Shown: piece after piece, positions 4,537-25,304 of the stretch | Position numbering within the stretch: the first letter of the stretch is position 1 | Layout of the letters: the number at the start of each line of letters is the position of its first letter | Assembly (NCBI GenBank): GCA_963663385.2 | Contig: CAXXXD010000004.1 | Span: 480,001-544,000 of the forward strand | Length of the DNA stretch: 64,000 nt | Reading direction: 5' to 3' | From: Oceanispirochaeta sp. | Lineage (GTDB): Bacteria > Spirochaetota > Spirochaetia > DSM-2461 | The notes under the pieces: generated by a model | Seen by the model: the letters and a program-made list of their open reading frames with translations, nothing else | What the model was told of the DNA's origin: nothing | The model's database searches: none | Translations under genes and position numbers: made by a program

Positions 4537-6119
4537 TATATATCCTCCTCGGATAAGCGTCGGTAGAGGGTCGCAAGGCTGATGCCTAGGTGCCTGGCCA
4601 TGGCTTTTTTCCCGTCTGTGGTCTCTCCGTAAGTCTGGAGAAGAGATACCAGCTCTTCATGGGAAATCCGGTTCTTTTTCCTCCTCTGTACTGTTTTTTC
4701 CGCTGCGGCTTTTTTCCGCGGATGAAAGAGGATGGCCGGAGGGAGATCCTCTTTTTCTATCAGCTCGCCAGGGGTTATGGTCATGCAGTACTGGATCGTA
4801 TTTTCCAGTTCTCTTGTATTCCCCGGCCAGTCGTAATTTTTCAGTGTTTCCATGGCCTCATGGGAGAGGTATTTGAATGAGCCCATTGCGCAGGCATACT
4901 TCCGTATAAAATAGTGGGCCAGTTTCTCGACTTCCTCCCTGTGTTCTCTCAGGCTTGGGAGGTTCAGGGGAATGACATTCAACCTGTAATAGAGGTCGCT
5001 TCTAAAACGGCTGTCTTCGATAAACTGTTCCAGATTCTTATGGGTGGCGCTGATAAAACGGACATCTGCCCTGATTGTTCTATGCCCGCCCAGGGGTTCG
5101 AACTCTTTTGTCTGAATAACCCTGAGCAGCTTTGCCTGGAGGGCAGGGGTCATATCCCCGATCTCATCCAGAAATACAGTACCCCCGTGGGCTATTTCCA
5201 GTTTACCCTTTCTTCCTCCCGAATCGGCACCGGTAAAAGCGCCTCTTTCATATCCGAAGAGTTCACTCTCCAGCAGGGCTTCCGGGATTGCCGCACAGTT
5301 TATGGCTACAAAGGGGTATTCCTTGCGCAGGGATACATTGTGGATGGCCCTGGCAAACTGTTCTTTTCCTGTCCCGCTTTCTCCTCTGATCAGTATGGAA
5401 GAGTCTGTAACGGCGGCCCTCACAGCTATGCTGATACAGTGTCTGAGCTGGGGGCTGTCTCCAATGATCTTCTGAAACCCGGAAGCTTTTTTGATGGCCG
5501 TATCAATACCGTTTGCTGTTTCTCCGGAAAAAGGGGTCCCCAGAATCATCCGGCCGATAAATGTATCTTCCCTGTAAAAATTATAGAGCCGGAGTTTGAG
5601 GGGGGATGTCCCGCCCAGCAGTATGGTATAGCTTTCGGAGGTCTCAATATTTTTGTCCTCCGATTCGGCGCAGTAATCGAAAAACCTTTCGGATAAATGC
5701 CATTTCCGGGCCGTCGGATTTTCATAATGGAGGATATTTCCTTTTTGAAGCAGTACAATACCTTTTTCACTCTCATTTGCTATTACTTCGATAACCTGGC
5801 TGAAGTAATGATTTTTCCAGTGTTCGATTCTGATCTCTTCCTGTTCTGTCAGGAGGCGACTGCAGAAAAGAAGGTGGCTTATTTCCTTTGAGGATTTGTT
5901 TTCCATATCCAGCCGGTTGTTGAAACTCCAATAGACAGAGTATTCCGAGGCGGTCAGGGTTGGGGGGACAAACAGGCTCCCCGTATCGCTGCTGACCGAA
6001 ACTGAGGTTTCAGCCCTCTCATGGGCAGTTGCTTTCCGAACTTTAATGCGGCAGTCGAAATATCGTTCCAGAGAATACCGGGTTTCCTGATTCATTGGTT
6101 TATCATAACTTATTTGCAT
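4536..6119 (-). CDS. Sigma54-dependent transcriptional activator (AAA+ bEBP with Fis-type HTH)
   Basis: GESGTGKE, ESELFGYERGAFTGA, FLDEIGD, WPGNTRELEN and C-terminal LGISLATLYRRL. Confidence 0.95.
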   Translation of the reverse strand: MQISYDKPMNQETRYSLERYFDCRIKVRKATAHERAETSVSVSSDTGSLFVPPTLTASEYSVYWSFNNRLDMENKSSKEISHLLFCSRLLTEQEEIRIEHWKNHYFSQVIEVIANESEKGIVLLQKGNILHYENPTARKWHLSERFFDYCAESEDKNIETSESYTILLGGTSPLKLRLYNFYREDTFIGRMILGTPFSGETANGIDTAIKKASGFQKIIGDSPQLRHCISIAVRAAVTDSSILIRGESGTGKEQFARAIHNVSLRKEYPFVAINCAAIPEALLESELFGYERGAFTGADSGGRKGKLEIAHGGTVFLDEIGDMTPALQAKLLRVIQTKEFEPLGGHRTIRADVRFISATHKNLEQFIEDSRFRSDLYYRLNVIPLNLPSLREHREEVEKLAHYFIRKYACAMGSFKYLSHEAMETLKNYDWPGNTRELENTIQYCMTITPGELIEKEDLPPAILFHPRKKAAAEKTVQRRKKNRISHEELVSLLQTYGETTDGKKAMARHLGISLATLYRRLSEEDI

Positions 6120-6213
6120 TATTTTCTCAAATATAGGTTTAATTTGGAAATGAGAAAAATGAGAAATTTGATAATTTTAAGGTTGAAACCCCTGCTTTTG
6201 CAGGAAATAACAG

Positions 6214-6230
6214 TTGGCATGTTATTTGTA
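6214..6230 (+). promoter_or_regulatory. Sigma54 (-24/-12) promoter for the permease operon
   Basis: TTGGCAT-GTTAT-TTGTA versus consensus TGGCAC-N5-TTGCW; 38 bp upstream of the ATG at 6269; next to the bEBP gene. Confidence 0.75.
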
Positions 6231-6268
6231 TTAAGAGATTCCCAAGAAAAAAACGTGAGGTATTATTT

Positions 6269-7555
6269 ATGTCAAAACAGGATAAGGAAGGATTTGTAGA
6301 ACAGCATGCCCTTGATCAGATACCTGTGAACCAGAGAAAGAGCTGGCTGAGTATCGCCCTTATATGGGCCGGCGCTATGATCAGTGTTACATCCCTGATG
6401 GTCGGGGGAGCCCTGGTTTCCGGACTCACTCTCGGGAGGGCAATAGGGGCTGGTGTTGCAGGTTATCTGATCATTATGGCCTTTATGGTTTTTCAGGGGA
6501 TGCAGGGGGCTGACCTGGGCCGCCCGACTGTTGTAAATGCGGAATCGTCCTTCGGGAAACAGGGCGCCGGATTTGTTATTTCCTTTGTGCTGGGAGTCTC
6601 TGTAATGGGTTGGTTCGCCGTACAGACCTCTGTTGCGGGAGCTGCTTTTTCCGGTTTTATAGCAGAAATGGGCGGGTCCTTTCCCCTGTGGCTCTCCTCT
6701 CTTATCTGGGGGACAGTGATGCTGGTTACGGCCATTATGGGAATCAGGGCACTGGCGTATCTGAACTATATTGCTGTGCCGGCTCTGATTATTCTGGCGG
6801 TTGCAGGGACTGCAATGGCATTCAGGCAGTATGGCATTGAAGGTCTCTCTTCTGTGCAGCCGGCCGCCCCCTTTCCGTTTTTTAACGGTGTGGCTATTGC
6901 GGTAGGCGGTTTCGCGGTTGGCGGCGTTATTGCCGCTGACTACTCCCGTTATGCCAGAGACCGGAAAGGTTCCATGCTCTCTTCTGTTGTCGGTGTTCTG
7001 CCTCTCGGTATTATACTGATTGCCTCCGGGGCTGTTATGGCTGTAGTAGCCGGAACATACGATATAACTGCTGTTATATCCTCTCTGGGGTTTCCTGTTC
7101 TGGGGTTTCTCACTCTGATCCTGGCGACATGGACGACAAATGCCGTAAACGCCTATTCCGGAGGACTGGCTATTACCAGTATGTTTAACCTGGACAGCAG
7201 CAAAAGGGCTTTTGCCACGGCTGTAGCCGGAGGTATCGGAACGATTCTTGCGGTTCTGGGGTTCATCAGCCATTTTATCTCCTTCCTGACTGTTCTGACA
7301 GCAGGTATAACTCCCATTGCCGGTGTTATGATTGCCGATTACTGGATCAGGAACAGGGGGAACGCGGAGAACTGGGCTCCCGCAGAAGGGATTCACTGGG
7401 CCGGGATTACTGCCTGGCTGGCTGGAACATTTACCGGTTTGTTTTTTAAATGGGGAAGCAGCGCGATCAATGCCATTGTCGTGTCCGGTGTCTGTTTTCT
7501 GGTTCTGACTCTTATTGCCGATAAAAAGGAGAAACTGGCTGATGCGAATTCTTGA
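6269..7555 (+). CDS. NCS1-family nucleobase/hydantoin permease (CodB-like)
   Basis: About 12 hydrophobic segments; GWFAVQ, ADYSRYA, WTTNAVNAYS, PIAGVMIADY. Confidence 0.9.
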   Translation: MSKQDKEGFVEQHALDQIPVNQRKSWLSIALIWAGAMISVTSLMVGGALVSGLTLGRAIGAGVAGYLIIMAFMVFQGMQGADLGRPTVVNAESSFGKQGAGFVISFVLGVSVMGWFAVQTSVAGAAFSGFIAEMGGSFPLWLSSLIWGTVMLVTAIMGIRALAYLNYIAVPALIILAVAGTAMAFRQYGIEGLSSVQPAAPFPFFNGVAIAVGGFAVGGVIAADYSRYARDRKGSMLSSVVGVLPLGIILIASGAVMAVVAGTYDITAVISSLGFPVLGFLTLILATWTTNAVNAYSGGLAITSMFNLDSSKRAFATAVAGGIGTILAVLGFISHFISFLTVLTAGITPIAGVMIADYWIRNRGNAENWAPAEGIHWAGITAWLAGTFTGLFFKWGSSAINAIVVSGVCFLVLTLIADKKEKLADANS

Positions 7556-8639
7556 TGAAAAAGCGATAGAACATATAGCCCTCGGGGCTTCCCTTCTGGG
7601 TACCGGCGGAGGAGGGGATCCTCACATAGGTAAGCTGATGGCTCTGGATGCTATCCGCAAGTATGGACCGGTAACCCTTCTGTCGGCGGACGAACTGCCC
7701 GATGATGCTTTGATTGTCCCCTCCGCCATGATGGGCGCCCCGGTTGTCATTATAGAAAAACTCCCTAACGGACAGGAGTTTATACATGCCTTCAAAGGTC
7801 TGGAAGGTGTTCTCGGGAAGAAAGTATATGCCACCATACCCATTGAGGCGGGGGGGGTGAACTCCATGATCCCCATTGCCGTGGCGGCTCAGCTGGGAAT
7901 TCCCCTGGTGGATGCCGACGGAATGGGCCGGGCCTTTCCGGAACTGCAGATGGTTACCTATCATCTGGATGAGATCCCTGCCAGTCCCATGGTTATTGCG
8001 GATGAAAAAGGGAATACGGTTATTCTCAATACCATAACCAATAACTGGGCGGAAGAGCTGGCCCGGGGGCTGACCGTTTCCATGGGCGCTTCTGTTATGA
8101 TCAGCATCTATCCCATGACAGGCCGGCAGGTTAAGGACTCTGCGATTCTGAATATAATGAGCTTTTCAGAGGATATCGGCAGGATCATTATGGAGGGCCG
8201 GGAGAAGAATATCCTTCCCCTGGATGAAATCCTTGAGATTACCAGCGGGTATGCCCTGTTTAAAGGGAAAATCACCGATGTGGAACGCAAGCTGGAAGGC
8301 GGCTTCAACAGGGGGCTGTGCAAACTGAGCGGAGTGGACGACTGCAGAGATCAATCCATGGATATTGACTTCCAGAACGAAAATCTTATTGCGACCAGAG
8401 ACGGACAGGTGGTTGCCACTGTTCCCGATCTTATCTGCATTGTCGATCTGGATACTATGGTGCCCATTACGACGGAATCCCTGAAATACGGACAGAGGGT
8501 TCTTGTTCTGGGGATCCCCTGCGATGCCAAATGGCGGACACCCAAAGGACTGGCGACGGTTGGTCCCCGTTATTTCGGCTATGATCTCGAATATGTGACA
8601 ATTGAAAAACTGGCCGGCAGGAAGGAGGTCCTTGTATGA
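7542..8639 (+). CDS. DUF917-family protein
   Basis: GTGGGGDP, MGAP, EAGGVN, DADGMGRAFPELQM, QNENL, VPDLI; AGGAG RBS before the ATG at 7542. Confidence 0.9.
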   Translation: MRILDEKAIEHIALGASLLGTGGGGDPHIGKLMALDAIRKYGPVTLLSADELPDDALIVPSAMMGAPVVIIEKLPNGQEFIHAFKGLEGVLGKKVYATIPIEAGGVNSMIPIAVAAQLGIPLVDADGMGRAFPELQMVTYHLDEIPASPMVIADEKGNTVILNTITNNWAEELARGLTVSMGASVMISIYPMTGRQVKDSAILNIMSFSEDIGRIIMEGREKNILPLDEILEITSGYALFKGKITDVERKLEGGFNRGLCKLSGVDDCRDQSMDIDFQNENLIATRDGQVVATVPDLICIVDLDTMVPITTESLKYGQRVLVLGIPCDAKWRTPKGLATVGPRYFGYDLEYVTIEKLAGRKEVLV

Positions 8640-10189
8640 GTTACAAGCTTGGAATCGATGTTGGGGGAACCAATACGGATGCGGTGCTGATTGATGATCA
8701 GAACCGTATCCTCTCCCAGATAAAAACCCCGACTACCGAAGATGTTATGACCGGTATTAACCGGGCGGTTCTCTCTGTTCTGGATCAGGTGGATATTAAA
8801 CGGCAGGATATCGGACATGCCATGCTGGGGACAACCCACTCAACCAATGCCATTGTTACCAGAAAGCATCTTCTCAAGACCGGAGTGCTCCGGATCGGCA
8901 AGCCTGCCACCATGTGTATCGAGCCCATGACTGACTGGCCCCGGGAGCTGCTGGAAGCCGCCAGCTGCGGAACCTATATGATTACCGGCGGTCATGAATT
9001 CGACGGCCGGGAGATTTTCCCCCTGGATGAGGAGGAAATCCGGCAGGCCTGTGCCGATATGAAAGGCCGGGTAGAGGCTGTTGCTATTACCAGTGTGTTC
9101 TCTCCTGTTTCATCAGCCCATGAAACCAGAGCCATGGAGATCGTGAAGGAGTCCCTGGGGGATATCCCCGTGACGGTTTCAAATGAGATTGCTTCAATCG
9201 GTATCCTGGAAAGAGAAAATGCCACTATCCTGAATGCTTCCCTGAATAAGGTGGCCCGGACTATGGCGGAAGGTTTTCATAAGGCTCTCAAAGAGGCGGA
9301 TGTTACGGATGCGGAAGTCTATATCTGCCAGAACGACGGAACCCTTATGAATATGGATTACGCGGTTGAGTATCCTGTTCTCACCATCGCCTGCGGCCCG
9401 ACCAACAGTATCCGGGGCGCTTCATTCCTGAGTGGAAAAAAGGATGCCATTGTTCTGGATGTGGGAGGTACGACAAGCGATATCGGTGTTATAAAGGGCG
9501 GTTTCCCCCGGGAATCATCCCTGGCTGTTGAAATCGGCGGCGCCCGGACGAATTTCCGTATGCCCGACCTGAACTCCATCGGTCTGGGGGGCGGGACCAT
9601 TATTCACCGGAATGGCGACAGTTTTACTGTCGGTCCCGACAGTGTGGGGTATCAGATTACGGAAAGAGCCCTTGTTTTCGGCGGTGATACCCTGACGGCT
9701 ACGGATATTATTGTACGCCTCGGGATGTCCGATATAGGAGATCCATCCCTTGTTTACCATATGGACCGGGATTTTGCCCGGGCGGTTTTCGACCGGATGA
9801 TGGAGACCGTAAGCAACGGGATCGACCGGATGAAGCTTTCGAAAGATCCTGTTCCGGTTGTTCTGGTCGGAGGAGGCAGTATTCTGATAGGAGATACCAT
9901 TGAAGGTGTGGCCGATCTTATCCGTCCGGAGAATTTCGGCGTGGCCAATGCCCTGGGCGCTGCGATCTCTCAGGTCAGCGGTCAGATTGAGAGGGTGTAC
10001 TCTCTGGATCAGATCCCCCGGGAAGAAGCAATGGCGGACGCCCGGAAAACTGCCGTGGATGAAGCCGTTAAGGCAGGAGCGGAAGAGTCTACCATTTCCA
10101 TTGTGGAAGTGGATGATGTGCCCCTTGCGTATCTGCCAGGCAATGCTACCCGCATCCGTGTAAAAGCTGTAGGATTCCTTAAAAAATAA
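8636..10189 (+). CDS. Hydantoinase A/5-oxoprolinase-family ATP-dependent protein
   Basis: GIDVGGTNTD, GTTHSTNA, ERENATILNA, GPTNS, DVGGTTSD, SIGLGGG, GPDSVG; ATGA overlap with DUF917. Confidence 0.92.
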   Translation: MSYKLGIDVGGTNTDAVLIDDQNRILSQIKTPTTEDVMTGINRAVLSVLDQVDIKRQDIGHAMLGTTHSTNAIVTRKHLLKTGVLRIGKPATMCIEPMTDWPRELLEAASCGTYMITGGHEFDGREIFPLDEEEIRQACADMKGRVEAVAITSVFSPVSSAHETRAMEIVKESLGDIPVTVSNEIASIGILERENATILNASLNKVARTMAEGFHKALKEADVTDAEVYICQNDGTLMNMDYAVEYPVLTIACGPTNSIRGASFLSGKKDAIVLDVGGTTSDIGVIKGGFPRESSLAVEIGGARTNFRMPDLNSIGLGGGTIIHRNGDSFTVGPDSVGYQITERALVFGGDTLTATDIIVRLGMSDIGDPSLVYHMDRDFARAVFDRMMETVSNGIDRMKLSKDPVPVVLVGGGSILIGDTIEGVADLIRPENFGVANALGAAISQVSGQIERVYSLDQIPREEAMADARKTAVDEAVKAGAEESTISIVEVDDVPLAYLPGNATRIRVKAVGFLKK

Positions 10190-10299: not shown

Positions 10300-11757
10300 T
10301 CAGCGCTTCAGAAAGGCTTTTCTGGTCAAACCCAGTTCAGAGTAAATCCCCGTGTTTTCCCTTATGGGGTGAAACTCTTTTCTTGCGTTGTGATCCATCT
10401 CTGCCCACAGGGCATCGTAGGACGGCGTTTTATTCAGCGCTGTCATCCCGTTCATCCAGGCCCCTAGAGCTGTGGCTTCTCCGTTTCCCCAGGCCGTCAC
10501 TGATTTGTTATAGCAGTCCGCCTGGATCTGGTTGTACAGGTCGAAACGGGTCATGCCGCCGGAAACCGACACCTCTTCAATGGGGCCTGTCATCTTCTCG
10601 ATGGCCTTCAGCTGCTCCCCGAGTTCCATGGCTATGCCTTCCAGAACGGCGCGGGCCATGTCCCCCCTTGTCGTATTCAAGTCCAGGTTGAGATAAGCCC
10701 CTTTCAAGGCTCTTTCGCCGCTGATCCCTTTAAAATGGGGAATCAGAATTACCCCGTTTGAGCCGACCGGGGAGGTCCTGATCTCGCTGTCTATGAGGGA
10801 AAACCTGGTTTTTGCTTCCACATCAGGGTTCATGAAGGTTTCGCTGAACCAGCGGTAGATAGTTCCCGCCGTAAGCATATTGGCTTCGACGATATACTTT
10901 CCCGGGATGGCGGATATATTGCAGAAAATCTTTTCCTCCGGGTCGTGTACCACTTTGTCGGACAGGCCGATAACATAGGCCCCGGTTCCCGTATTAATGG
11001 CAACTTTCCCCGGGGAAGTGATCCCCAGACCCAGGGCCGCACACTGCTGATCCCCTCCTCCTGTTATGACGGGGGTTCCTTCGGGAAGGTTTGTCAGTTT
11101 TGCTGTTTCTTTTTTGAGAGAACCGCAGATACTTCCGGGAGGGACGACTTTCGGGAGCTGTTCCGCCTTGAGGGAAAAGAGTTCCAACAGGGAGGGGTCC
11201 CATCTTCTTCTCTTCAGGGAGTAGAGGTTGAATCGGCTTGCAATGGATTCATCCGTAATGAATTCCCCGGTCAGGAGGAACATGAGGTAGTCGTAAACCC
11301 CTGCCATTCTGGCTGTTTGTTCCGCTATTTCCGGACAGTTCCTTTTGATCCACAGCATCTTGACTGCAGAGAATACAGGGGACAGGGGGAGTCCTGTTTT
11401 GCGGTAGATCCGGCTGCTCGTTCCGCCCAGTTCCTCACAAAGGCTTTCTGTTCTCCTGTCCTGCCACATAATGGCGGGCATAAGCGGGTTCCCTTCTCTG
11501 TCAGCCGGGAAAACGGGTGACCGGAAGGCTGTCAGGCTGATGCCTTCCAGGGACTCCCCCTTTTCAGAAAGGTGGCGGCTGCAGTCTGACAGGATCTCCA
11601 GCAGAGACTGTTTCCAGGCAAGAGGATCCTGTTCAACACGGATCGTGTCCGGAAAACGGGGGCTGGTTGTTTTTTGGCTTGTAAAAACAGCACGTCCTCT
11701 TTCATCGAAAAGGATACCTCTCATGCTTGTTGTTCCCGTATCCAGGGACAGTATCAT
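10300..11757 (-). CDS. FGGY-family carbohydrate kinase
   Basis: LDTGTTS, WQDRR, GGGDQQCAALG, RAVLEG, VSGG and ATALGA motifs. Confidence 0.92.
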   Translation of the reverse strand: MILSLDTGTTSMRGILFDERGRAVFTSQKTTSPRFPDTIRVEQDPLAWKQSLLEILSDCSRHLSEKGESLEGISLTAFRSPVFPADREGNPLMPAIMWQDRRTESLCEELGGTSSRIYRKTGLPLSPVFSAVKMLWIKRNCPEIAEQTARMAGVYDYLMFLLTGEFITDESIASRFNLYSLKRRRWDPSLLELFSLKAEQLPKVVPPGSICGSLKKETAKLTNLPEGTPVITGGGDQQCAALGLGITSPGKVAINTGTGAYVIGLSDKVVHDPEEKIFCNISAIPGKYIVEANMLTAGTIYRWFSETFMNPDVEAKTRFSLIDSEIRTSPVGSNGVILIPHFKGISGERALKGAYLNLDLNTTRGDMARAVLEGIAMELGEQLKAIEKMTGPIEEVSVSGGMTRFDLYNQIQADCYNKSVTAWGNGEATALGAWMNGMTALNKTPSYDALWAEMDHNARKEFHPIRENTGIYSELGLTRKAFLKR

Positions 11758-11772
11758 TTGCTTCCTCTGTTA

Positions 11773-12465
11773 TTAATTTTGGCCATAATAGGCGTTTTTG
11801 CCATGTTTTCTTAAAAAGTGTTTATTCATCAGATCCTGCTGCATGGCGGAGCAGGCCGGGTTGATGCTCAGGCTGGATGCGGCCATAAAAGCCAGTTCCT
11901 CCAGCACCACCGAATTATGAACCGCATCTTCCGGGCTTTTCCCCCAGGTGAACGGACCGTGCGAACAGACCAGCACCGCGGGTACAAAGGCGGGGTCGAT
12001 ATTTCTGCTTCTAAAGGTTTCGACAATAACGTTTCCCGTTCTCAGTTCATATTCGTCTTTTATTTCCATTTCAGTCATTTTTCTGGTACAGGGGATCGGC
12101 CCGTAGAAATAATCCGCATGGGTTGTACCAAGAGCGGGGATGTCCCGTCCGGCCTGAGCCCAGGACGTACTGTTTCTTGAATGGGTATGAACAATTCCCA
12201 TGCACTCGGGAAAGGCTTTGTAGAGAGCCAGGTGGGTGGCCAGGTCGCTGGAGGGTTTGTATCTCCCCTCAACCACATTTCCATCCAGATCGCATACTAC
12301 CATATCTTCGGCTTTCATGGTTTCGTATTCTACACCGCTCGGTTTGATAATCACCAGTTTTTTTTCGCGGTCGATTCCGCTTACATTCCCCCATGTGTAG
12401 GTTACCAGGCCTTTCCGGGGGAGTTCGAGGTTTGCTTCGAAAACCCTTTTTTTCAGTTCATTCAT
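11773..12465 (-). CDS. araD: L-ribulose-5-phosphate 4-epimerase (AraD/UlaF)
   Basis: [49 protein letters not shown]. Confidence 0.95.
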
Positions 12466-13330
12466 CTGTGTATCCCCCTTCTTCCATTTTTTTCAGCATC
12501 CATTCCCGGGCTTTTTTTATTTCCAGAATCGGGTCGTCCGCCTTTTCGGTCCACATCTCAATAAGAAAGGGGCCTTTGTAATCAAGCTCGTTCAGCAAAC
12601 TGAAAAAGGCCGGGAAATCAACACAGCCCTCCCCGAAGGGAACTTCCTTGAACTGACCGTTAAATACTCCCGAGACTGCTTTTGTATCTTTCAGATGGAT
12701 GGCGGAAATCTGATGAATTCCTCTGGTGATTTCTTCTGTAATATCATTACCCCACGCACTGAGGTTCCCAATGTCCGGATAAACTGTAAACCAGGGGGAT
12801 GATATCTTCCGGGAGTATTCAAGAAAGCGGCTTATTGAATTCAGAAGAGGGTGATCCATGATTTCCATGCTGAGCATCACTTCCGCTTTGGCTGCCCAGT
12901 TTACGGCCTGCTTCAACCCGTTCAGGAAGTTTTCCCGCGTTCTGGCGTTGCCGGGGGTATAATATACATCATACCCGGCCAGCTGGATATTCCTGATGCC
13001 GAGGTCGACCGCCAGTTCGATTGCTTTTTTCATTATAACCAGAGCGGTTTTACGTGTTTCAGGATCTTCGCTGCCCAGAGGAAATTTCCGGTGCCCGCTC
13101 AGGCACATGGATGGAATTCTGACTCCCGTCTCGGCGATATTCTTAACGAGTTCAAGACGCTCTTCCTGTGTCCATTCGAGGCGTGCCAGGCGCCTGTCCG
13201 TTTCATCAATGGATATTTCAACAAAATCATAGCCGGTATCCCGGGCTATCTCCAGTTTCCGCCTCCATGTGGTTTCGGGAGGCAGGGCTTTTTCATATAT
13301 ACCCAGGGCCTGTTTGTCCAGATTGTACAT
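12458..13330 (-). CDS. ulaE: L-xylulose/L-ribulose-5-phosphate 3-epimerase
   Basis: [55 protein letters not shown]. Confidence 0.95.
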
Positions 13331-13339
13331 AAAATCTAC

Positions 13340-13990
13340 CTAGCTCCAGTATTTACGGATCTCATTTTTCCATGCTCTGGCTTCTGCTGCAGGATCTTCG
13401 GCATTCCGCAGGTTTCTGCCTACGATAAAGCATTTTACAGGGATATCTTTAAAAAGCTTGATGACATCAATTGTCAGACCGCCGGTAACAGATACTTCAA
13501 AACCCATCTCTGCCAGTTTCTTGACAACTTTCATATTTGCTTCACCCCAGGATCCTCCCGAGTTTAACGCATCCCGGCTCTGATGGTAGATTACCTGTTT
13601 GAGACCGATCTTTTTCCACTCTTCGGCTTCTTCGAAAGTCCAGTTGCCAAAAAGCTCAACCTGAACTTCCCCGCCCAGTTTTTCAGCAGCTTCTACTGCT
13701 TTGGCTTTGGTGGCGTTAGCGGCGTTGCACATCACGGTTACCCAGTCTGCACCTTTGGAGCATGCCATATCCGCCAGTTCGCCACCGGCATCGACTATCT
13801 TAAGATCCGCAACAATTGTGTTATCGGGGTACAGTGTTCTTATTGTCCTGATTGATTCTGCACCTGTTGAGAGACAGAGAAGAGTTCCCGCTTCTATAAC
13901 GTCCAGTTCAGGAGCAAGCACTCTGGTAGATTCCAGTGCTTCGCTTATGGTGAAATTATCTAATGCAACCTGTAATAGAGGTAACGGCAT
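13340..13990 (-). CDS. ulaD: 3-keto-L-gulonate-6-phosphate decarboxylase
   Basis: PLLQVALD, IEAGTLL, ADLKIVDAG, QVELFG, YHQSRDA, VTGGL, FIVGR. Confidence 0.93.
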   Translation of the reverse strand: MPLPLLQVALDNFTISEALESTRVLAPELDVIEAGTLLCLSTGAESIRTIRTLYPDNTIVADLKIVDAGGELADMACSKGADWVTVMCNAANATKAKAVEAAEKLGGEVQVELFGNWTFEEAEEWKKIGLKQVIYHQSRDALNSGGSWGEANMKVVKKLAEMGFEVSVTGGLTIDVIKLFKDIPVKCFIVGRNLRNAEDPAAEARAWKNEIRKYWS

Positions 13991-14176
13991 GATTCACTCC
14001 TTTATTTCATCAATAGATATGATTATTAAACAATCAAAACGAACATATTGTCAAGTGATACTTTCGTTTGAAATGGGTCTGATTTGACAGGAGTACACTC
14101 CAATATCTTTGTATATAGGTAAATATGTCTATATTTTAATAGGGTTACGTTGTTTGTTATCTTTTTTAATATATTT

Positions 14177-14231
14177 CAAATGATCAAAATGATTATTATG
14201 AGTTGACAAATGATCATTTCGGTGGGACAAT
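14177..14231 (+). promoter_or_regulatory. Sigma70 promoter of ulaG overlapped by DeoR-like operator repeats
   Basis: TTGACA (14203-14208), 17 bp, TGn-GACAAT (14226-14231); CAAATGATCA at 14177 and 14207. Confidence 0.7.
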
Positions 14232-14286
14232 GAATCATTCAATGCATAAAAAATGAGGGATTATCCATTAATTCATAGGAGACATA

Positions 14287-15351
14287 ATGAGTAAGGTAGA
14301 TGAAATTACGCGAGAGTCCTGGATTCTTAATACATTCCCCGAGTGGGGGACCTGGCTGAATGAAGAGATTGAAGCCGAAGATGTAAAACCCGGGACCGTA
14401 GCCATGTGGTGGCTGGCCTGCACCGGTATGTGGATTAAATCGGAAGGCAATACCAATATTTGTATTGACCTGTGGACCAAGACAGGGAAAAGATCCCAAT
14501 CCAACCCCTGGATGAAGGATCAGCACCAGCATCAGAGGATGATAGGCTGTAAAAAACTGCAGCCCAACCTCCGGAATGTGCCCTGTGTCCTGGACCCCTT
14601 CGGGATTAAAAATGTGGATGCCATTCTGGCTACCCATGACCATGGCGACCATATTGACGAGAATGTTGCCGCGGCTGTTCTGCAGAACTGCAGTGATGAC
14701 GTTCCTTTTATCGGGCCTCAGGCCTGTGTGGATCTCTGGATCGGCTGGGGTGTCCCCGAAAGCCGCTGCAGGGTGGTGAAGCCCGGCGATACGGTTAAGC
14801 TGGGAGATATTGAGATCATTGCCCTCGACTCCTTTGACAGAACAGAGCTGGTAACGGCTCCCGGAGGTGTTACTCTTAAGGGGAAAATGCCTCAGGACAT
14901 GGATCGCCTGGCTGTAAATTATCTGATTAAAACACCCGGAGGCAATATCTATCACAGCGGTGATTCCCACTACTCCAATTATTATGCCAAACATGGTAAT
15001 GATTACAAAATTGATGTGGCATTCGGTTCTTATGGTGAAAATCCCCGGGGGATGACCGATAAAATGACATCCGTGGATATTCTCAGAATGGCGGAATGCC
15101 TCAATACTCAGGTAGTAATCCCCTTTCACCATGATATCTGGACAAACTTTCAGGCGGATCCCGCCGAAATCAAGGTTCTGTGGCAGATGAGAAAGGATCG
15201 TCTTCAGTACAAGTTCAAACCCTATATCCTGCAGGTAGGCGGTAAATTCACCTTCCCTGACGATAAGGACAGGATGGAGTATCACTACCCCCGCGGGTTT
15301 GAAGATGCCTTTGCCATTGAACCGGATCTGCCCTTCCGTTCTATGCTCTAA
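14287..15351 (+). CDS. ulaG: L-ascorbate-6-phosphate lactonase (metallo-beta-lactamase fold)
   Basis: [56 protein letters not shown]. Confidence 0.96.
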
Positions 15352-15449
15352 GCTGGTTTTGTTGGAAATCTGGGCTGCGTAGCGGCCCTTGATTGATATC
15401 GTTGTGTCCCTGCAGATTAACTGCAGAGACAAAAAACAGGAGGATCTTT

Positions 15450-16802
15450 ATGAAAAAAATGTTAGCTGTCCTGATCATTACAGCTATGGCATTTACCCTT
15501 TTTGCTGGTGGCCAGCAGGAAGCTGAAACACAGGCTGCGGCCTCAGGCGAATTCGACTGGCGTCAGTTAGAAGGGACTACTATCGTCACCTGCTTTCCCA
15601 ATCATGTAACCTACAATGCTTTAATGCCTCTTATTCCCGAATTTGAGGAACTTACGGGGATTAAGGTTGAAGTGGACCTTCTTCAGTATATGAAGATGCA
15701 TGATAAACAGGTTCTGGAAATGAGTAAACCTTCCGGTGACTACGACCTCATTTCCATGGTTTGTATGTGGAAGTCCGAGTACGCAACCGCCGGTATGCTG
15801 ACACCACTGGAACCCTTCTTTGAAAATCCTTCCCTGGCTTATCCCGATTATGATTTTGACGATCTTGTACCGGCCTATGTTGAAAATACAGGTTATGTAG
15901 GCGGTAAAAAAGTATATCTGGGCGGTCCCGGTGCCACCCTCTACGGAGTGCCTTTCGGTGCGGAGACCAGTATCCTTATCTATAGAAAGGATATCTTTGA
16001 AGAGCATAATCTGAAAGTTCCTGAAACTTACGATGAAGTTCTGGAAGCTGCCAAATATATCTATGAAAATGTAGACGGCGTATATGGTATGACCAGCCGC
16101 GGTGCAGCAGGTCATCAGGCCAATGCGGCTTACCTTCTCCATGCCTCCCCCTTTGAAGCTCAGGTTTTTGATGATAACTGGGAGCCTGTTATGAATTCTC
16201 CCGAATCAATTGCTGCTCTGAACTGGATGAAGGAAATGTTCAGCTACGGACCTCCGGGTATGACCAGTTTTGCCCAGGACGGCGAATTTCAGGCTTTCCT
16301 TCAGGGAGATGCAGCCATGTACCTTGATGCCTGTGTTTTCGCCGGTAAGGCCAGAGATCCCAAACAGTCCAAAGTATATGACAAGCTCGGTTACGCCATG
16401 CACCCCATGCAGGAAAACCGGCTCAGTGAATCCGGTGGTTTCGGTCTGGCAATTCCTGCCAACAGCAGCAACCCCGAAGCGGCTTTCCTGTTTATGCAGT
16501 GGATGACCAGCAAGGAGATTGAGCGCAAAGTTATTGATAACGGCGGCGCGCCCTTCAGGATGAACTCTGTATCGGATCCTGTACTGCAGAAAAAATACCC
16601 TGAGTTTGAAGTCCTGGCCAAACAGCTTCCCCATGTCAATCCCGACTGGAGACCTATCATTCCCGAATGGGGGGAGATCAACAATATGATGGGTATTGCG
16701 GTTAACCAGGTTCTGACTGGCGAAAAAGAACCTCAGGAAGCTATGGACGATATCGTCGCTCCTATCCGGGAAATAATGGTAAGAGCCGGTTATATCAAGT
16801 AA
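15450..16802 (+). CDS. Carbohydrate ABC transporter substrate-binding protein (CUT1)
   Basis: AGGAGG RBS; signal peptide ending FAGGQQE; GVPFGAETSILIYRKD, PETYDE, AFLFMQW. Confidence 0.9.
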   Translation: MKKMLAVLIITAMAFTLFAGGQQEAETQAAASGEFDWRQLEGTTIVTCFPNHVTYNALMPLIPEFEELTGIKVEVDLLQYMKMHDKQVLEMSKPSGDYDLISMVCMWKSEYATAGMLTPLEPFFENPSLAYPDYDFDDLVPAYVENTGYVGGKKVYLGGPGATLYGVPFGAETSILIYRKDIFEEHNLKVPETYDEVLEAAKYIYENVDGVYGMTSRGAAGHQANAAYLLHASPFEAQVFDDNWEPVMNSPESIAALNWMKEMFSYGPPGMTSFAQDGEFQAFLQGDAAMYLDACVFAGKARDPKQSKVYDKLGYAMHPMQENRLSESGGFGLAIPANSSNPEAAFLFMQWMTSKEIERKVIDNGGAPFRMNSVSDPVLQKKYPEFEVLAKQLPHVNPDWRPIIPEWGEINNMMGIAVNQVLTGEKEPQEAMDDIVAPIREIMVRAGYIK

Positions 16803-16817
16803 GATTTAATACTAATT

Positions 16818-16861
16818 GCCGCCCCCTGTGCATAATTGGCAGTGGAGGCGGCTTTTTTTTC
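16818..16861 (+). terminator. Stem-loop with U tract after the SBP gene (partial terminator or mRNA stabiliser)
   Basis: GCCGCC...GGCGGC followed by a T8 run. Confidence 0.6.
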
Positions 16862-16874
16862 GGGAGGTACTCTT

Positions 16875-17753
16875 TTGGCTTTATTGCACAGTAAGAAAAG
16901 TCCTTACATTTTTATTTTACCGGCACTCGCTATCCTGCTGTCGGTTCTGGTTGTTCCAGTATTTTCCAGTATCCGACTGAGTTTTTTCGAATGGTCCCTG
17001 CGGGATATCAGGAATGCTCCCGCTTTTATCGGACTGCGGAATTTTATTGAAATTTTCAAAAGTGAATATTTTCATACCAGTATCAGGGTTACTCTGATTT
17101 TTACTGTCAGTGTTGTGGTGCTGGAGATGTTTATCGGAATGATAATCGCTCTTATGCTGGAAGAAGGTGTCCCCGGACTGAGACTGTTTAGAACAATCTT
17201 TATCCTTCCTGTTATGATTGCTCCGGTTGTTGTCGGTGTTGTCTGGAAGTTTATGTATAATCCCTCCTACGGGAAAATCAACTATTTTCTGACACAGCTG
17301 GGGCTGAAACCGGTTGGCTGGCTTTCTGATCCCCAAATGGCCCTGGTGTCCATTATTATTACGGATATCTGGCAGTGGACACCCTTTGTTTTTCTGCTGC
17401 TTCTGGCAGGTCTTCAGGGCATCCCCGGAGATCTGAGTGATGCCGCTAAAGTGGACGGCGCCAATTACTTTCAGAACCTGATCCATATCAAGCTGCCCTG
17501 TATCTCCGGTGTAATAGGAATTACTGCGGTTCTGCGTCTGATAGATGCTTTCAGGGGCCTTGTTGTTATGTTTATTATGACCAATGGCGGACCGGGAATG
17601 TCTACGGAAATCCTGTCCCTTCATCTGTATAAAACGGCTTTTACGGATCAGCGGCTCGGCAAGGCGTCTGCTGTCGCGGTTGTCCTGCTCTTTATCATTA
17701 CCATGCTCTCCATTGTGTTTGTCCGCAACAGCATAAAAGAAGAGAAGAGGTAG
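16875..17753 (+). CDS. Carbohydrate ABC transporter permease
   Basis: GGAGG RBS then TTG; DIWQWTPF and the EAA loop DAAKVDGA. Confidence 0.92.
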   Translation: MALLHSKKSPYIFILPALAILLSVLVVPVFSSIRLSFFEWSLRDIRNAPAFIGLRNFIEIFKSEYFHTSIRVTLIFTVSVVVLEMFIGMIIALMLEEGVPGLRLFRTIFILPVMIAPVVVGVVWKFMYNPSYGKINYFLTQLGLKPVGWLSDPQMALVSIIITDIWQWTPFVFLLLLAGLQGIPGDLSDAAKVDGANYFQNLIHIKLPCISGVIGITAVLRLIDAFRGLVVMFIMTNGGPGMSTEILSLHLYKTAFTDQRLGKASAVAVVLLFIITMLSIVFVRNSIKEEKR

Positions 17754-17760
17754 CCCGGTT

Positions 17761-18594
17761 ATGAATATGACAGCAAGAAGAAAACTGAATGAAAGAATCC
17801 TTTTTATTCTTATCGTGATCGGGGCAGTCATCTGCCTTTTCCCGATATATGAGATGATCTCCACCTCTCTGAAATACGAAGTGGAGGCCTTTTCCATACC
17901 ACCTAAATGGATCTTTACGCCGACTCTGGAAAATTACGGCAGTATTCTGACCAGTAATAATTTTGGAAGGTACTTTGTAAACAGTATTATTGTAGCTCTG
18001 TCTACAACCTTTTTCAGTGTGATAGTCGGTGCTCTGGCAGGTTATTCCATTTCCCGTTTCCGGTACAGGGGAAAAAAGCTTATTGTAATTCTAACCCTGC
18101 TGCTCCGGATGATACCCCCGGTTATACTGGTAATCCCGGTATTTGTCATCTGGAACTCCATCGGACTGGCTAATACGAGAATCGGTCTGGTTCTGGTTTA
18201 CATCGCCCTGAACCTGCCATTTAATATCTGGGTTCTCCAGACGTTCATATCGGATATTCCCCTGTCTCTGGATGAGTCGGCTACGATTGACGGTTGTTCC
18301 GACTGGGTTGTTTTTCATAAAATAATCCTTCCCCTGATTGCGCCGGGGCTGTCTGTAGCAGGAATCTTTACGTTTCGGATTGCCTGGAACGAATATATTC
18401 TCAGTTTAGTCCTGACAAACCGGTACACAAGAACACTGCCGGTTGCGGTTTCCCTCTTTCTGACAGATACAGGAACAGAATGGGGAAAGATTACTGCTAT
18501 TGCCACAATTATTGCGGTCCCTGCATTTATTTTTACTTTTACAGCAGCCAAGAGTCTGATTATGGGTATGACTGCCGGTGCGGTAAAGGGCTAG
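17761..18594 (+). CDS. Carbohydrate ABC transporter permease
   Basis: ESATIDGC EAA loop, AWNEY, C-terminal GMTAGAVKG. Confidence 0.92.
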   Translation: MNMTARRKLNERILFILIVIGAVICLFPIYEMISTSLKYEVEAFSIPPKWIFTPTLENYGSILTSNNFGRYFVNSIIVALSTTFFSVIVGALAGYSISRFRYRGKKLIVILTLLLRMIPPVILVIPVFVIWNSIGLANTRIGLVLVYIALNLPFNIWVLQTFISDIPLSLDESATIDGCSDWVVFHKIILPLIAPGLSVAGIFTFRIAWNEYILSLVLTNRYTRTLPVAVSLFLTDTGTEWGKITAIATIIAVPAFIFTFTAAKSLIMGMTAGAVKG

Positions 18595-18608
18595 GGGAGT
18601 TGTTGAAT

Positions 18609-19751
18609 ATGACATCCAAGGAAAGAGTTGACCTGGCTTTGAATCATAAAGAGGCGGACAGAATCCCTATTGATTTCGGCGGACATCTGATTACAAGTAT
18701 CCATATGGATGCCTACAGGCCTCTGCTGCAGTATATGGGAATGCCTGATAAACCTCTTGAAATAGAAAGGTACAGGCAGAGGACGGCTGTGATAGATGAA
18801 GAAATCTTTCAGAAATTTCATTCGGATTTTCGTCCGTTGACCCCTCCTGTGCCGGATCTGAAATGGTTTGAAGAGGGGGATGACTCCCTTTATGAGGATG
18901 AATGGGGTGTTACCTGGCGGCGAAAGGGTTCGGATGGCCTTTATTTTGAACACCATAAACCCGCTTATGACAGTATGCCTGCAGTCGATCTGTTAATGGA
19001 AAAGACCTGGCCCGATTACTCCCTTGGAAAAAGGATTGCCGGTCTGCCGGAAAAGGCCTCAGTCATTGATGAGGCCGGGAAGGTTCCCGTACTGGATCTT
19101 CCCCTGGGCCTGGAAATATTCGATGCGGGGTTCAATATCTGCGGTTCCGGCAATTTTTATATGCTGCTCGCCCTTGACCCCGAAGCGGCGTGTTATATTT
19201 TCGACAGGCAGCTTGAACAGCAGATCGCCTGGTGGTCTCAGGCAATTAAAGCTATGCCGGAATTGACCCTGATTAGGATTGGAGATGATCTGGGGGCTCA
19301 GGATGCCATGCTTATTGATCCGGATATGTACCGTTCTCTGGTACTGCCCCGGCATCAGAAGCTGTTCCGTACCACAAAAGATCTGTCCGGAGGGAGGGTC
19401 AGAATTATTATGCATTCAGACGGAGCCATCCTTCCTGTTCTGCCGGATCTGATTGATGCGGGAATTGATTGTCTGAATCCTGTCCAATATACGGTCAGGG
19501 GGATTGATCCTGCTGCCCTGAAAAAAGAATTCGGAGGGGATATTACGTTTTGGGGCGGGGGTGTTGATTCCCAGAATATCCTGCCCAATGAGAGTCCCGA
19601 AGCAGTAAAGGACGAGGTTAAACGGCAGATTGATATCCTGGCTCCTGGAGGAGGGTATGTCTTCAGCCCAATCCATATCCTGCAAAAGGATGTCCCCCCT
19701 GAGAATATCATTGCCATGATGGAAGCAGCTATAGAATATGGGTCTTATTAA
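18609..19751 (+). CDS. Uroporphyrinogen decarboxylase/MtaA-CmuA superfamily protein
   Basis: MTSKERV..ALNHKEADRIP, DEWGV, GDDLG.Q, HSDG, FWGGGVDSQ, APGGGYVF, VPPENI. Confidence 0.85.
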   Translation: MTSKERVDLALNHKEADRIPIDFGGHLITSIHMDAYRPLLQYMGMPDKPLEIERYRQRTAVIDEEIFQKFHSDFRPLTPPVPDLKWFEEGDDSLYEDEWGVTWRRKGSDGLYFEHHKPAYDSMPAVDLLMEKTWPDYSLGKRIAGLPEKASVIDEAGKVPVLDLPLGLEIFDAGFNICGSGNFYMLLALDPEAACYIFDRQLEQQIAWWSQAIKAMPELTLIRIGDDLGAQDAMLIDPDMYRSLVLPRHQKLFRTTKDLSGGRVRIIMHSDGAILPVLPDLIDAGIDCLNPVQYTVRGIDPAALKKEFGGDITFWGGGVDSQNILPNESPEAVKDEVKRQIDILAPGGGYVFSPIHILQKDVPPENIIAMMEAAIEYGSY

Positions 19752-19821
19752 TTCAAATCTTGCAGGGCTCTCTGAGTCCTGTTAATATAAACAGATAAAA
19801 TAATAGAAAACCGGAGAACAC

Positions 19822-20607
19822 ATGTCCGTAAGTCCAATTGCATCAAGCCGCCATATCCGCCTCCTGGATATCCTCAAACGCAGAGGAGCCACCCGGGTAG
19901 ATGAGCTTAGCGAGATGCTTTCAGTTTCCCCGGTTACCATCCGGCGGGATCTGGAATATCTCAGCAGGAAGGGGTTGCTGGAGAGGCATCACGGAGGAGC
20001 CCGGCTGGTAACAGCTCCTGTTAATGGTCTGCCCGAAAGAGACTTTACAGAAAAGGGCGGCTCTATGGCAGCAGAAAAAAATGCCATTGCCAGAAAAGCC
20101 CTTGAACTGCTGGACGACAATGAAATTATTTTTGTAAACAGCGGATCCACGACTCTCTCTTTTATAGGCAGTCTTCAGGACAGAAGGTTGAAAGTCTTTA
20201 CCAATAACGCCTGGTCCATAACGGTTCAAAAGGGTCCGGAAGTCGATTTGATGATTCTGGGAGGAGAGTTCCGGGAAAACTCCCGGTCCTTTGTGGGGAT
20301 TATGACCCTTGAGGCCCTTGAAAATATCCACAGTAATAAAACCTTTCTCGGTTCAAACGGCATCTCCCTGGAGAAGGGACTGACCACAACGGTACAGCAG
20401 GAGTGCAGTATTAACCAGGCTATGATACGTAATACAAACGGGCCGGTTATCGTGCTGGCCGATCATACGAAAATCGGACGGATTTCCAATTTTGTTTCCA
20501 CTCCCCTGAATCATATTGATATTCTGATTACCGACAATGGTTGTCCCGAAGAGAAAATAGAGAAATTCCGGCAGACCGGTATCCGGGTTATTGTGGCAGA
20601 AGTTTAA
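19822..20607 (+). CDS. DeoR/GlpR-family regulator (UlaR-like candidate)
   Basis: VSPVTIRRDL HTH, HGGA, NSGSTT, ADHTKIG. Confidence 0.92.
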   Translation: MSVSPIASSRHIRLLDILKRRGATRVDELSEMLSVSPVTIRRDLEYLSRKGLLERHHGGARLVTAPVNGLPERDFTEKGGSMAAEKNAIARKALELLDDNEIIFVNSGSTTLSFIGSLQDRRLKVFTNNAWSITVQKGPEVDLMILGGEFRENSRSFVGIMTLEALENIHSNKTFLGSNGISLEKGLTTTVQQECSINQAMIRNTNGPVIVLADHTKIGRISNFVSTPLNHIDILITDNGCPEEKIEKFRQTGIRVIVAEV

Positions 20608-24381: not shown

Positions 24382-25167
24382 ATGAAAATGGAAATTCCCG
24401 CGGAGAGGCGGGTGCGCATATTACAGTTGCTTAAAGATAAGGGCATTGTCAGAGTTGATGAACTGAGCCGGGACCTGGAAGTGTCCGTTATAACAGTCCG
24501 GAGAGATCTGGCTGCCATGGAAAATGAGGGTCTTCTGGAGAGAACCCACGGGGGAGCCATCGGTTCCAATCTCCGCGTGAACGAACCTTCCTACAATGAC
24601 AAGGGACGGCAGAACATCACCCATAAATCCAGCATTGCCCGGAAAGCAGCCTCGCTGGTGGAAGAGGGCGAGACGATTTTTGTTAATAGTGGGTCCACCA
24701 CTGCTCTTGTGCTTCAGGAGCTTGTCCACGTACCCCGTCTGACTATAATAACGAATAATATTGGAGCTCTAAATAATCTGGATATTCGTCCGGATTGCGA
24801 GCTGATCCTCACCGGCGGTACTTTCCGGCCCGGTACCAGCTGTCTGGTGGGTGAAGAGGTTATCAACCGCCTCAATCTTGTATACCCAACCACAACGATC
24901 CTTGGGGTTGACGGAGTCTCCTTCCGGAAAGGATTGACTTCACACAATGCCCATGAGGCGGCGGTAAGCCGGAAAATGATTGAACAGGCCAGCGGACGAA
25001 TTATTGTTGTGGCTGATTCATCCAAAATAGGATCGCTTTCCCTGCATACTATCAGTCCTCTGCCTCAGGTTGATGCACTGGTGACGGATAGTCTGCCTGA
25101 TCCTTCGGTTATTCAGGATTTTATCAATGCCGGGGTGCAGTTGATTACAGCCGGTGATTCGCAATGA
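24382..25167 (+). CDS. DeoR/GlpR-family regulator
   Basis: VSVITVRRDL, RTHGGA, NSGSTT, ADSSKIG; paralogous to 19822-20607. Confidence 0.92.
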   Translation: MKMEIPAERRVRILQLLKDKGIVRVDELSRDLEVSVITVRRDLAAMENEGLLERTHGGAIGSNLRVNEPSYNDKGRQNITHKSSIARKAASLVEEGETIFVNSGSTTALVLQELVHVPRLTIITNNIGALNNLDIRPDCELILTGGTFRPGTSCLVGEEVINRLNLVYPTTTILGVDGVSFRKGLTSHNAHEAAVSRKMIEQASGRIIVVADSSKIGSLSLHTISPLPQVDALVTDSLPDPSVIQDFINAGVQLITAGDSQ

Positions 25168-25220
25168 TCGATTGAGATCGGAATTGAAAAATATTGGAGG
25201 TCTTTAAGATTGTATTGAAA

Positions 25221-25276: not shown

Positions 25277-25304
25277 GACTTTATAATTATTAAGGAGAGT
25301 TGTT

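Follow-up and report, generated by a model that had tools for sequence, protein, structure and literature searches.

A stretch of 64,000 nucleotides from the genome of an Oceanispirochaeta sp. (contig CAXXXD010000004.1, positions 480,001 to 544,000; the window from here on) holds a cluster of ten genes in which enzymes of the ula pathway for L-ascorbate stand together with an ATP-binding cassette (ABC) importer of the CUT1 type and a kinase of the FGGY family (Table 1). The genome, G000, comprises 5.3 Mb in 4 contigs at 98.13% completeness; G-numbers denote genomes, L-numbers fetched loci, and C2 and C3 are contigs of G000. The genes form two units that diverge from a common spacer of 296 bp. 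The minus-strand unit runs ulaD, ulaE, araD/ulaF and the FGGY kinase, with a gap of 9 bp between ulaD and ulaE, an overlap of 8 bp between ulaE and araD/ulaF, and a gap of 15 bp before the kinase. The plus-strand unit runs ulaG, the CUT1 binding protein, two permeases, a gene resembling uroporphyrinogen decarboxylase (URO-D-like) and a DeoR-family gene.

Table 1. Genes and control region of the ula cluster, in window coordinates
Feature	Position	Strand	Evidence
FGGY kinase, unnamed subfamily; candidate L-ascorbate 6-kinase or 3-keto-L-gulonate kinase	10300..11757	-	Pfam FGGY_N + FGGY_C
L-ribulose-5-phosphate 4-epimerase, AraD/UlaF/SgbE type	11773..12465	-	NF006047, 388.8 vs 257 bits; 57-63% identity to E. 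coli UlaF, SgbE, AraD
L-xylulose-5-phosphate 3-epimerase, UlaE/SgbU type	12458..13330	-	NF009689, 444 vs 200 bits; 56-57% identity to E. coli UlaE, SgbU
UlaD	13340..13990	-	NF009832, 285 vs 250 bits; one tblastn match in G000
Divergent control region	13991..14286	.	sigma-70-like promoter for ulaG at 14203-14231
UlaG, L-ascorbate-6-phosphate lactonase ortholog	14287..15351	+	NF008688, 654.7 vs 306 bits; PDB 2wyl, E 7e-191; 74% identity to E. coli UlaG
Solute-binding protein of the CUT1 ABC system; candidate binder of ascorbate or a sugar acid	15450..16802	+	Pfam SBP_bac_1
CUT1 ABC permease, MalF/UgpA type; start codon uncertain	16836..17753	+	family matches
CUT1 ABC permease, MalG/UgpE type	17761..18594	+	family matches
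URO-D/MtaA-fold protein; possible corrinoid-dependent demethylase	18606..19751	+	PF01208, 62.2 vs 23.9 bits
DeoR-family repressor, likely local regulator	19822..20607	+	Pfam DeoRC + HTH_DeoR

UlaG, UlaD, UlaE and AraD/UlaF all exceed their curated NCBIfam cut-offs, and UlaG and UlaD are single-copy in the genome by tblastn. A first-pass annotation made from the letters alone had listed these four genes and a DeoR gene, and all five are confirmed, the enzymes by curated models and the regulator by Pfam. The CUT1 system that it placed after ulaG is borne out as a binding protein with two permeases, and the FGGY kinase that it placed after araD carries both Pfam FGGY domains. Its gene inventory, however, missed the URO-D-like gene and did not remark that the cluster contains no ATPase gene for the ABC system; MalK-like matches, 7 in number, are found at other places in the genome.

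UlaABC, the phosphotransferase system (PTS) that imports ascorbate and phosphorylates it, is the only route to ascorbate-6-phosphate of which we are aware. As had been claimed, it is absent from the cluster, with no PTS gene among its ten genes. For the genome as a whole, searches with PF03611, PF02378, PF03609, PF03608, PF13303 and PF02302 gave zero matches in G000 (PF13303 being a weak test, since no control genome scored above its cut-off), and queries with UlaA, UlaB and UlaC from E. coli or relatives gave no tblastn match. The absence from the genome, which the first-pass annotation had left to be confirmed, thus extends to both kinds of search. It is extremely improbable that a UlaABC system elsewhere in the genome feeds UlaG, with the ABC system and the kinase as mere neighbours: enzyme I-like and HPr-like genes and 10 EIIA-domain matches are indeed present, and the assembly is 98% complete in 4 contigs, but neither IIC nor IIB was found by the six family searches or tblastn, and the linkage of kinase, ABC system and ulaG is conserved across several families.

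This linkage was followed in a first sample of 151 genomes, G000 and 150 relatives, in which a kinase match was taken at E<=1e-60. UlaG exceeded the cut-off in 26 of them, with none of the 10 same-genus genomes included. Among the 25 UlaG genomes other than G000, UlaA is present in 9 (in the ulaG locus in 6 and elsewhere in 3), and the 24 genomes that match the kinase include none of these 9. The kinase without UlaA occurs in 10, within the ulaG locus in 7, at 13 kb from it in G101, where it is split into two open reading frames, and on other short contigs in G056 and G134. Two more (G089 and G033) carry the same ABC system with a gene resembling PfkB and 2-keto-3-deoxygluconate (KDG) kinases in place of the FGGY kinase. 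The remaining 4 are unclassified: G034 and G135, with short contigs; G128, whose 55% identical UlaG accompanies a tripartite tricarboxylate transporter (TTT); and G046, whose 52% identical UlaG accompanies a tripartite ATP-independent periplasmic (TRAP) transporter, with a kinase of a sister clade elsewhere. Matches to PF03611 in six genomes without UlaA were considered as UlaA and rejected: in five of them the match is of galactitol-type IIC by score, and blastp to UlaA found nothing in any of the six, G056 contributing two fragments to which no type was assigned. The gat region of E. coli, where gatC is a pseudogene, was left aside for that reason.

The second sample comprised 401 genomes spread across the phylum, and its positives overlap those of the first in G000 and G049. 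UlaG was found in 20, the kinase search scoring at most three candidates per genome and kin not being independent. A UlaA-type match and no kinase match characterize 16 of the 20, one of which (G309) carries a broken ula operon; all 4 UlaG genomes without UlaA have a kinase in the locus, of FGGY type in G000, G049 and G373 and of PfkB type in G285. Moreover, a GTDB scan with the kinase outside the phylum returned 14 loci, 12 of them at 32% identity or above, and ulaG lies in the same locus for 9 of these 12 and elsewhere in the genome for the other 3 (G151-G153). The nine ulaG-linked loci come from Lachnospiraceae-type bins, Amphibacillus cookii (DSM 23721, L069) and one metagenome-assembled genome labelled Pseudomonadota. 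This distribution shows the ABC system with its kinase, on one side, and UlaABC, on the other, as apparent alternative entries to one UlaG pathway.

A comparison of identities within the cluster reveals that the locus of the window is, by its sequences, a mosaic. Against the PTS-type ula operons of its own family, UlaD has an identity of 82-88% and UlaE one of 71-79% (80-88% and 71-79% across PTS-type or PfkB-type loci of that family). In comparison with G106, G129 and G043, on the other hand, UlaD reaches about 50% and UlaE 53-59%, whereas UlaG and the binding protein reach 80-84%. These identities suggest that the ABC-kinase module may have replaced the PTS in place.

Other arrangements were noted among the fetched ula loci. 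A plasmid of Levilactobacillus brevis carries the kinase, ulaG, ulaD, a HAD gene and an orphan galactitol-type IIC in this order, with a partial LyxK-like gene nearby together with ulaE and ulaF. Split genes (the kinase in G101 and G075 at L117:3573-5071 and L114:7899-9399; ulaA and ulaG in G309 at L185:8754-10471) represent either decaying loci or assembly errors. A protein of 341-355 amino acids occupies the UlaD slot in six loci (L060:6516-7541, L180:5629-6678, L181:13407-14462, L182:6561-7616, L186:8215-9282 and L183:18139-19173); it belongs to none of the NCBIfam families, shows one weak Pfam FG-GAP repeat at most, has the fold of an aldos-2-ulose-dehydratase-like beta-propeller, and also occurs, as X, within complete PTS operons of the order ulaG-C-A-B-deoR-X-ulaE-ulaF. 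It was not found in G000. Also, diverged UlaG proteins (52-55%) accompany TTT or TRAP transporters and URO-D-like genes at L052:4167-15104, L053:126-6186 and L054:5154-10593, the first of which adds a LarA-family isomerase and an IolO-like epimerase; no kinase was seen in the DNA fetched around them.

The kinase shares the FGGY fold and its catalytic Asp residues with GlpK, GntK and XylB, but it does not reach the cut-off of any of the 12 NCBIfam FGGY models that it matches (XylB, the best, 287 against 380; GlpK, 230 against 590; GntK, 208 against 649). Its identity is 26.1% to XylB of E. coli, and its best match in the PDB is a gluconate kinase (3gbt, E 4.6e-53). A whole-library search gave more than 20 kinase clusters at 38% identity or higher, and those members of the kinase and binding-protein clusters that are named in the database bear generic names only. 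In a FastTree phylogeny, it lies in a clade of 26 rows with support 99, made up of 19 ulaG-linked kinases, 3 from genomes that have both a PTS and the kinase, and a sister group of 4. In GlpK numbering, R83, W103, D245 and Q246 are kept, and S84 and V135 are smaller residues. GlpK phosphorylates an L-configured terminal diol, and C5-C6 of both L-ascorbate and 3-keto-L-gulonate form such a diol as well. By analogy with this chemistry, the signature of the kinase would fit an L-configured terminal diol on a bulkier molecule; as far as its residues tell, it does not separate a ring from an open-chain substrate.

Orthology with LyxK, the FGGY kinase of the E. coli yia route, was considered and rejected, given the identity of 24.6%, a different substrate-site signature (AFRS/GGDQQC in the window's kinase and QGKG/LFDVVS in LyxK) and a different clade. 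A separate gene of G000 groups with LyxK (34%, support 100) and adjoins paralogs of UlaE and UlaF. The analogy with the yia route therefore does not carry over by descent.

The absence of any oxidoreductase gene from the cluster suggests that the substrate is already at the oxidation level of ascorbate or 3-keto-L-gulonate when it enters. Taken with the distribution of the two entries, it is very probable that the kinase replaces PTS phosphorylation in an ascorbate-level pathway, whichever of kinase and UlaG acts first. For the order of steps, the scheme in which the kinase precedes UlaG has a little better than an even chance in our estimate. L-ascorbate, or a derivative stripped to ascorbate inside the cell, would enter by the CUT1 system, powered by a common MalK-type ATPase encoded elsewhere; the kinase would use ATP to phosphorylate O6, giving L-ascorbate-6-phosphate and so doing the chemistry of UlaABC; UlaG would open the lactone to 3-keto-L-gulonate-6-phosphate; and UlaD, UlaE and UlaF would lead on to L-xylulose-5-phosphate, L-ribulose-5-phosphate and D-xylulose-5-phosphate. 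The reactions of these four enzymes are established for E. coli and are assigned here by family. The DeoR protein would repress both divergent units until a phosphorylated intermediate accumulates.

This order is favoured by the interleaving of UlaG proteins from the two kinds of loci, by their unchanged positions, and by the kinase not being LyxK in a genome with a separate LyxK-like gene. At all 20 of the metal, basic and polar positions checked, the UlaG of the window agrees with the E. coli protein, including the metal-binding H117, H119, D121, H122, D226 and H281, and 98 positions are invariant throughout 9 PTS-linked and 23 kinase-linked UlaG proteins. In the UlaG tree, PTS and kinase labels interleave with 5 changes, of which the starred branches force at least 2 to 3, and a single clade by entry type appears in 0 of 200 bootstrap trees. 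Were UlaG to act ahead of the kinase, it would meet an unphosphorylated substrate, and its residues might be expected to differ in some way; no such difference is found in the group of the window. For comparison, three UlaG-like proteins of 50% identity, from ABC operons with dehydrogenases and no kinase seen nearby, have K68E, H80A and R254P.

The reverse order, in which UlaG opens unphosphorylated imported ascorbate and the kinase is a non-orthologous 3-keto-L-gulonate kinase taking the role of LyxK, appears unlikely. The sister clade of the kinase, in genomes mostly without UlaG, is linked to a GntP permease, a 2-hydroxyacid dehydrogenase and an aldolase; the closest solved relative of the kinase is a gluconate kinase; and the PfkB kinases that substitute for it resemble KDG kinase. 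All three point to open-chain acids. Moreover, the kinase gene of the window shares its unit with ulaD, ulaE and ulaF and not with ulaG. However, no UlaG substitution pattern is tied to the loss of the PTS in the group of the window, and R84N and R254I/V are found among Firmicute-type UlaG proteins of either linkage, to the PTS or to the kinase. A LyxK-like gene coexists with the kinase in G000 and on the L. brevis plasmid, and the kinase gene stands directly before ulaG in the Firmicute loci L063, L064, L068, L070, L071 and L132. The first-pass annotation had offered both orders, a new ascorbate 6-kinase or an early UlaG, by reference to LyxK; the entry by kinase and ABC system is supported by comparative genomics, with the kinase-first order indirectly favoured, but the analogy with LyxK fails by descent.

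The kinase-first scheme has to accommodate further observations, which weigh against it together with the open-chain affinities of the kinase's relatives. Three gut genomes (G151-G153) carry a complete PTS ula operon with ulaG and also the kinase elsewhere, where its neighbours are an Opp-type ABC system, a short-chain dehydrogenase/reductase, a SnoaL-like protein and a flavoenzyme. In G075 the kinase is split and no UlaG passes the cut-off. Beside TTT or TRAP transporters, G128, G046 and, as a second copy, G149 have UlaG homologs of 52-55% identity with no kinase in the stretch that was fetched. The three-protein control represents one lineage on partial contigs, and the relatives in both samples are not independent. 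Finally, the URO-D-like gene is not needed by the scheme. As for the phosphate, Fernandez et al. hypothesized a nucleotide-like binding of ascorbate-6-phosphate, no complex being shown in the accessible part of their text (PMC3219644).

Three groups of other systems can be described beside these enzymes. The sister-clade kinases (L112:8544-10091, L113:8211-9755, L115:7929-9482 and L116:7984-9558) have a GlpK-like DPYFS motif and a similar gene set in all four loci, with RpiR, a D-2-hydroxyacid dehydrogenase and a class II aldolase, the latter two identified in G046, and two of them adjoin GntP; these loci possibly represent an undescribed aldonate pathway, for example for L-threonate. In L147-L149 and L161, a UlaG-like gene (50% identity, with K68E, H80A and R254P) lies within an ABC operon that also encodes a Zn dehydrogenase, GntR and a protein like tartronate semialdehyde reductase, with no kinase or UlaD, UlaE or UlaF seen, and its product is possibly a lactonase for an unphosphorylated substrate. 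Also, L120 (G000:C2:505000-524999) is a PTS-free cluster with two FGGY kinases, a galactitol-1-phosphate-dehydrogenase-like gene, GatZ, a paralogous binding protein and two URO-D-like genes, which, judged by its gene content, looks like a kinase-based galactitol/tagatose route.

The structural model of the binding protein (pLDDT, the predicted local distance difference test, of 90) is closest to Arad_9887 (5iai; Z 47.4, root-mean-square deviation 2.9, 393 aligned residues, 30% identity; sequence E 2.3e-51), followed by 6dtq, 4rya (Avi_3567) and 1eu8 at Z 42. The N-terminus of the protein, like adjacent genes in relatives, would agree with a spirochaete as its host. 5iai and 4rya are the closest solved CUT1 binding proteins by sequence and fold, at 30% identity to that of the window. 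Their ligands we take to be ribitol and mannitol, both neutral polyols, 4rya being labelled 'Sorbitol' in the search output; the fold searches did not name the ligand of the window's protein. A metagenome scan with this protein gave 35 loci, and ulaG is present in 7 of the first 22, which were annotated. Relatives at 42-45% identity (L152-L165) belong to CUT1 ABC systems with an ATPase, a cupin and a glyoxalase-like gene, and in the cases tested nearby enzymes exceeded their cut-offs as L-threonate dehydrogenase (2 of 2), 3-oxo-tetronate kinase (1 of 1) and D-erythronate dehydrogenase (1 of 1). These systems are candidate importers for tetronates or for breakdown products of ascorbate. L-threonate is one such product according to PMC11066805, in whose accessible part no passage on bacteria was found. 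The neighbourhoods tie the family of the binding protein to ascorbate-related sugar acids, with no specific ligand named.

Some of this would agree with a locus that serves, in place of ascorbate, a sugar-acid lactone or keto acid equal to it in oxidation level, such as the low identity of the binding protein to its nearest solved relative and the tetronate genes beside its 42-45% relatives; Fernandez et al. also caution, in the part of their text available, that some ula operons may serve related metabolites (PMC3219644). We nevertheless hold this to be very unlikely. The 74% identity of UlaG to that of E. coli, its conserved active-site positions and the presence of UlaD, UlaE and UlaF fix the L-gulo configuration on established knowledge, and the close identities of UlaD and UlaE to PTS-type or PfkB-type ula loci of the same family tell the same way.

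A further question is whether the imported molecule is ascorbate itself. The URO-D-like gene starts 11 bp after the second permease. Its product scores far below the cut-off of MtaA models (TIGR01463, 47 against 235) and reads H-S-D at the H-x-C motif of the corrinoid methyltransferase MtaA; its model (pLDDT 89) matches UroD at Z 27.7 and 26.9 and MtaA (4ay7) at Z 26.7, with 17% structural identity to the latter, so that the fold search did not separate the two. MtvB and MtoB are O-demethylase MT1 enzymes of the URO-D fold. Orthologs of 60-68% identity occupy the same place in G106, G129 and G043, after the permease; the binding proteins of these three genomes and that of the window group in one supported clade. 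In six other loci, a gene of the unrelated methyltransferase family MttB lies beside the kinase (two by Pfam and four by clustering), and glycosidases occur in others (GH2 and GH3 in L065/L066, GH29 in G373, and a beta-glucoside PTS with GH1 in L069). These neighbours suggest that some loci may take methylated or glycosylated ascorbate, which would be unmasked inside the pathway.

In its most definite form, this would mean that 2-O- or 3-O-methyl-ascorbate is the true imported substrate, that the URO-D/MtaA-like protein passes the methyl group to the corrinoid protein of the cell, and that the kinase phosphorylates the freed ascorbate, in agreement with the kinase-first order. We consider it doubtful. 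Beyond the orthologs, the MttB-family genes and the glycosidases, which together look like a set of unmasking steps, G000 carries a corrinoid protein gene (C3:249143-249952) and, adjoining it, its one RACo activator (both within C3:249143-253320), and 2-O-methylascorbic acid is named in the accessible parts of metabolomics papers. However, the link to transport appears generic: of 21 places with URO-D-like genes in G000, 14 lie within 6 kb of sugar ABC permeases, against 21% of random places, and it is possible that many substrate-specific methyltransferases work on one corrinoid carrier in this genome. RACo does not discriminate either, being found in 8 of 9 genomes whose locus has the URO-D-like ortholog or MttB against 11 of 16 others, with no match in G129. 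Furthermore, the protein is as near to UroD in fold, lies far below the MtaA cut-offs and lacks the Cys of the motif, and binding proteins of 60-65% identity occur without a URO-D-like gene. To our knowledge, demethylation of O-methyl-ascorbate has not been reported for the URO-D-like or the MttB-like family. We give similarly little credence to the broader proposal of a first L-ascorbate 6-kinase, represented by this kinase and standing at the centre of a set of PTS-free loci with which anaerobes harvest masked vitamin C. Glycosidases would free ascorbate from its glycosides in these loci, and URO-D-like or MttB-like corrinoid enzymes would demethylate O-methyl-ascorbate; if it were true, the window would contribute a methyl-ascorbate demethylase as well as a CUT1 binding protein of ascorbate type.

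In the control region, the best of 19 promoter-like sites lies just upstream of ulaG (10 of 12 matches), and all 4 aligned loci share its TTGACA. The spacer also has several TGAT(T/C)A half-sites, which are putative DeoR operators; the TGA-N-TCA palindrome is no more frequent here than in shuffles (p about 0.17), and among 32 regions one gave p about 0.01, hence no operator is claimed, and a terminator scan gave no more than shuffles. The DeoR protein groups next to those of the relatives' PTS-type ula loci (support 94, modest, on a branch that is not starred). Judged by the curated UlaR model it is no ortholog of E. coli UlaR, scoring 95.6 against the cut-off of 244 bits, with 25.9% identity.

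Outside the cluster, positions 4536-10189 of the window hold an unrelated neighbour cluster, with a sigma-54-type activator-like open reading frame, a cytosine-permease-like transporter, an S-methyl-thiohydantoin-desulfurase-like gene and a hydantoinase/oxoprolinase gene. At 24382-26432, 4-6 kb beyond the ula genes, a second DeoR gene and an Ldh_2-family dehydrogenase form a pair that is not linked in related ulaG loci and is probably unrelated to the cluster. The Ldh_2 gene (25305-26432) lies far below the YiaK cut-off (136.8 against 316).

A comparison with known systems places the pathway between two of them. The ula regulon of E. coli has the same types of UlaG, UlaD, UlaE and UlaF, with ulaG divergent from ulaD-E-F and a DeoR-family gene downstream of ulaG in the accessible description (PMC3219644), but the window has a CUT1 importer, an FGGY kinase and a URO-D-like gene instead of UlaABC. 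According to the available text of this 2011 survey of more than 100 genomes, the ulaABCDEF unit is found in all cases, with rearrangements and losses, and word counts over the same text returned no description of kinase contexts or of the spirochaete-type ABC context (PMC3219644). The yiaK-S system of E. coli (YiaMNO TRAP, YiaK, LyxK and SgbH/U/E) likewise feeds a decarboxylase of 3-keto-L-gulonate-6-phosphate and two epimerases by non-PTS uptake and an FGGY kinase, but the window has neither YiaK nor TRAP among its ten genes and does have UlaG. The pathway is like ula downstream of phosphorylation and like yiaK-S in its importer and kinase, but it lacks what defines each, with no UlaABC for the first and no YiaK and a kinase that is not LyxK for the second. 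Regarding the kinase, Zhang et al. (2011) treat nine FGGY specificities, and the word ascorbate is absent from the accessible part of their text (PMC3245297).

A literature search, which left out most subscription papers, found neither a PTS-free ulaG locus nor an ascorbate kinase described. The locus is real and conserved, and it is a variant of the known ula pathway built around a putative new enzyme activity. In genome screens, ulaA is often the marker for vitamin C fermentation. The locus suggests an ATP-dependent kinase as the way into the ula pathway for PTS-poor anaerobes and for some Firmicutes of the gut. It offers a candidate protein for ascorbate kinase activity and a candidate ascorbate-binding ABC protein, as well as a way to approach, from their genomic context, the numerous orphan URO-D-like genes found in sugar clusters.

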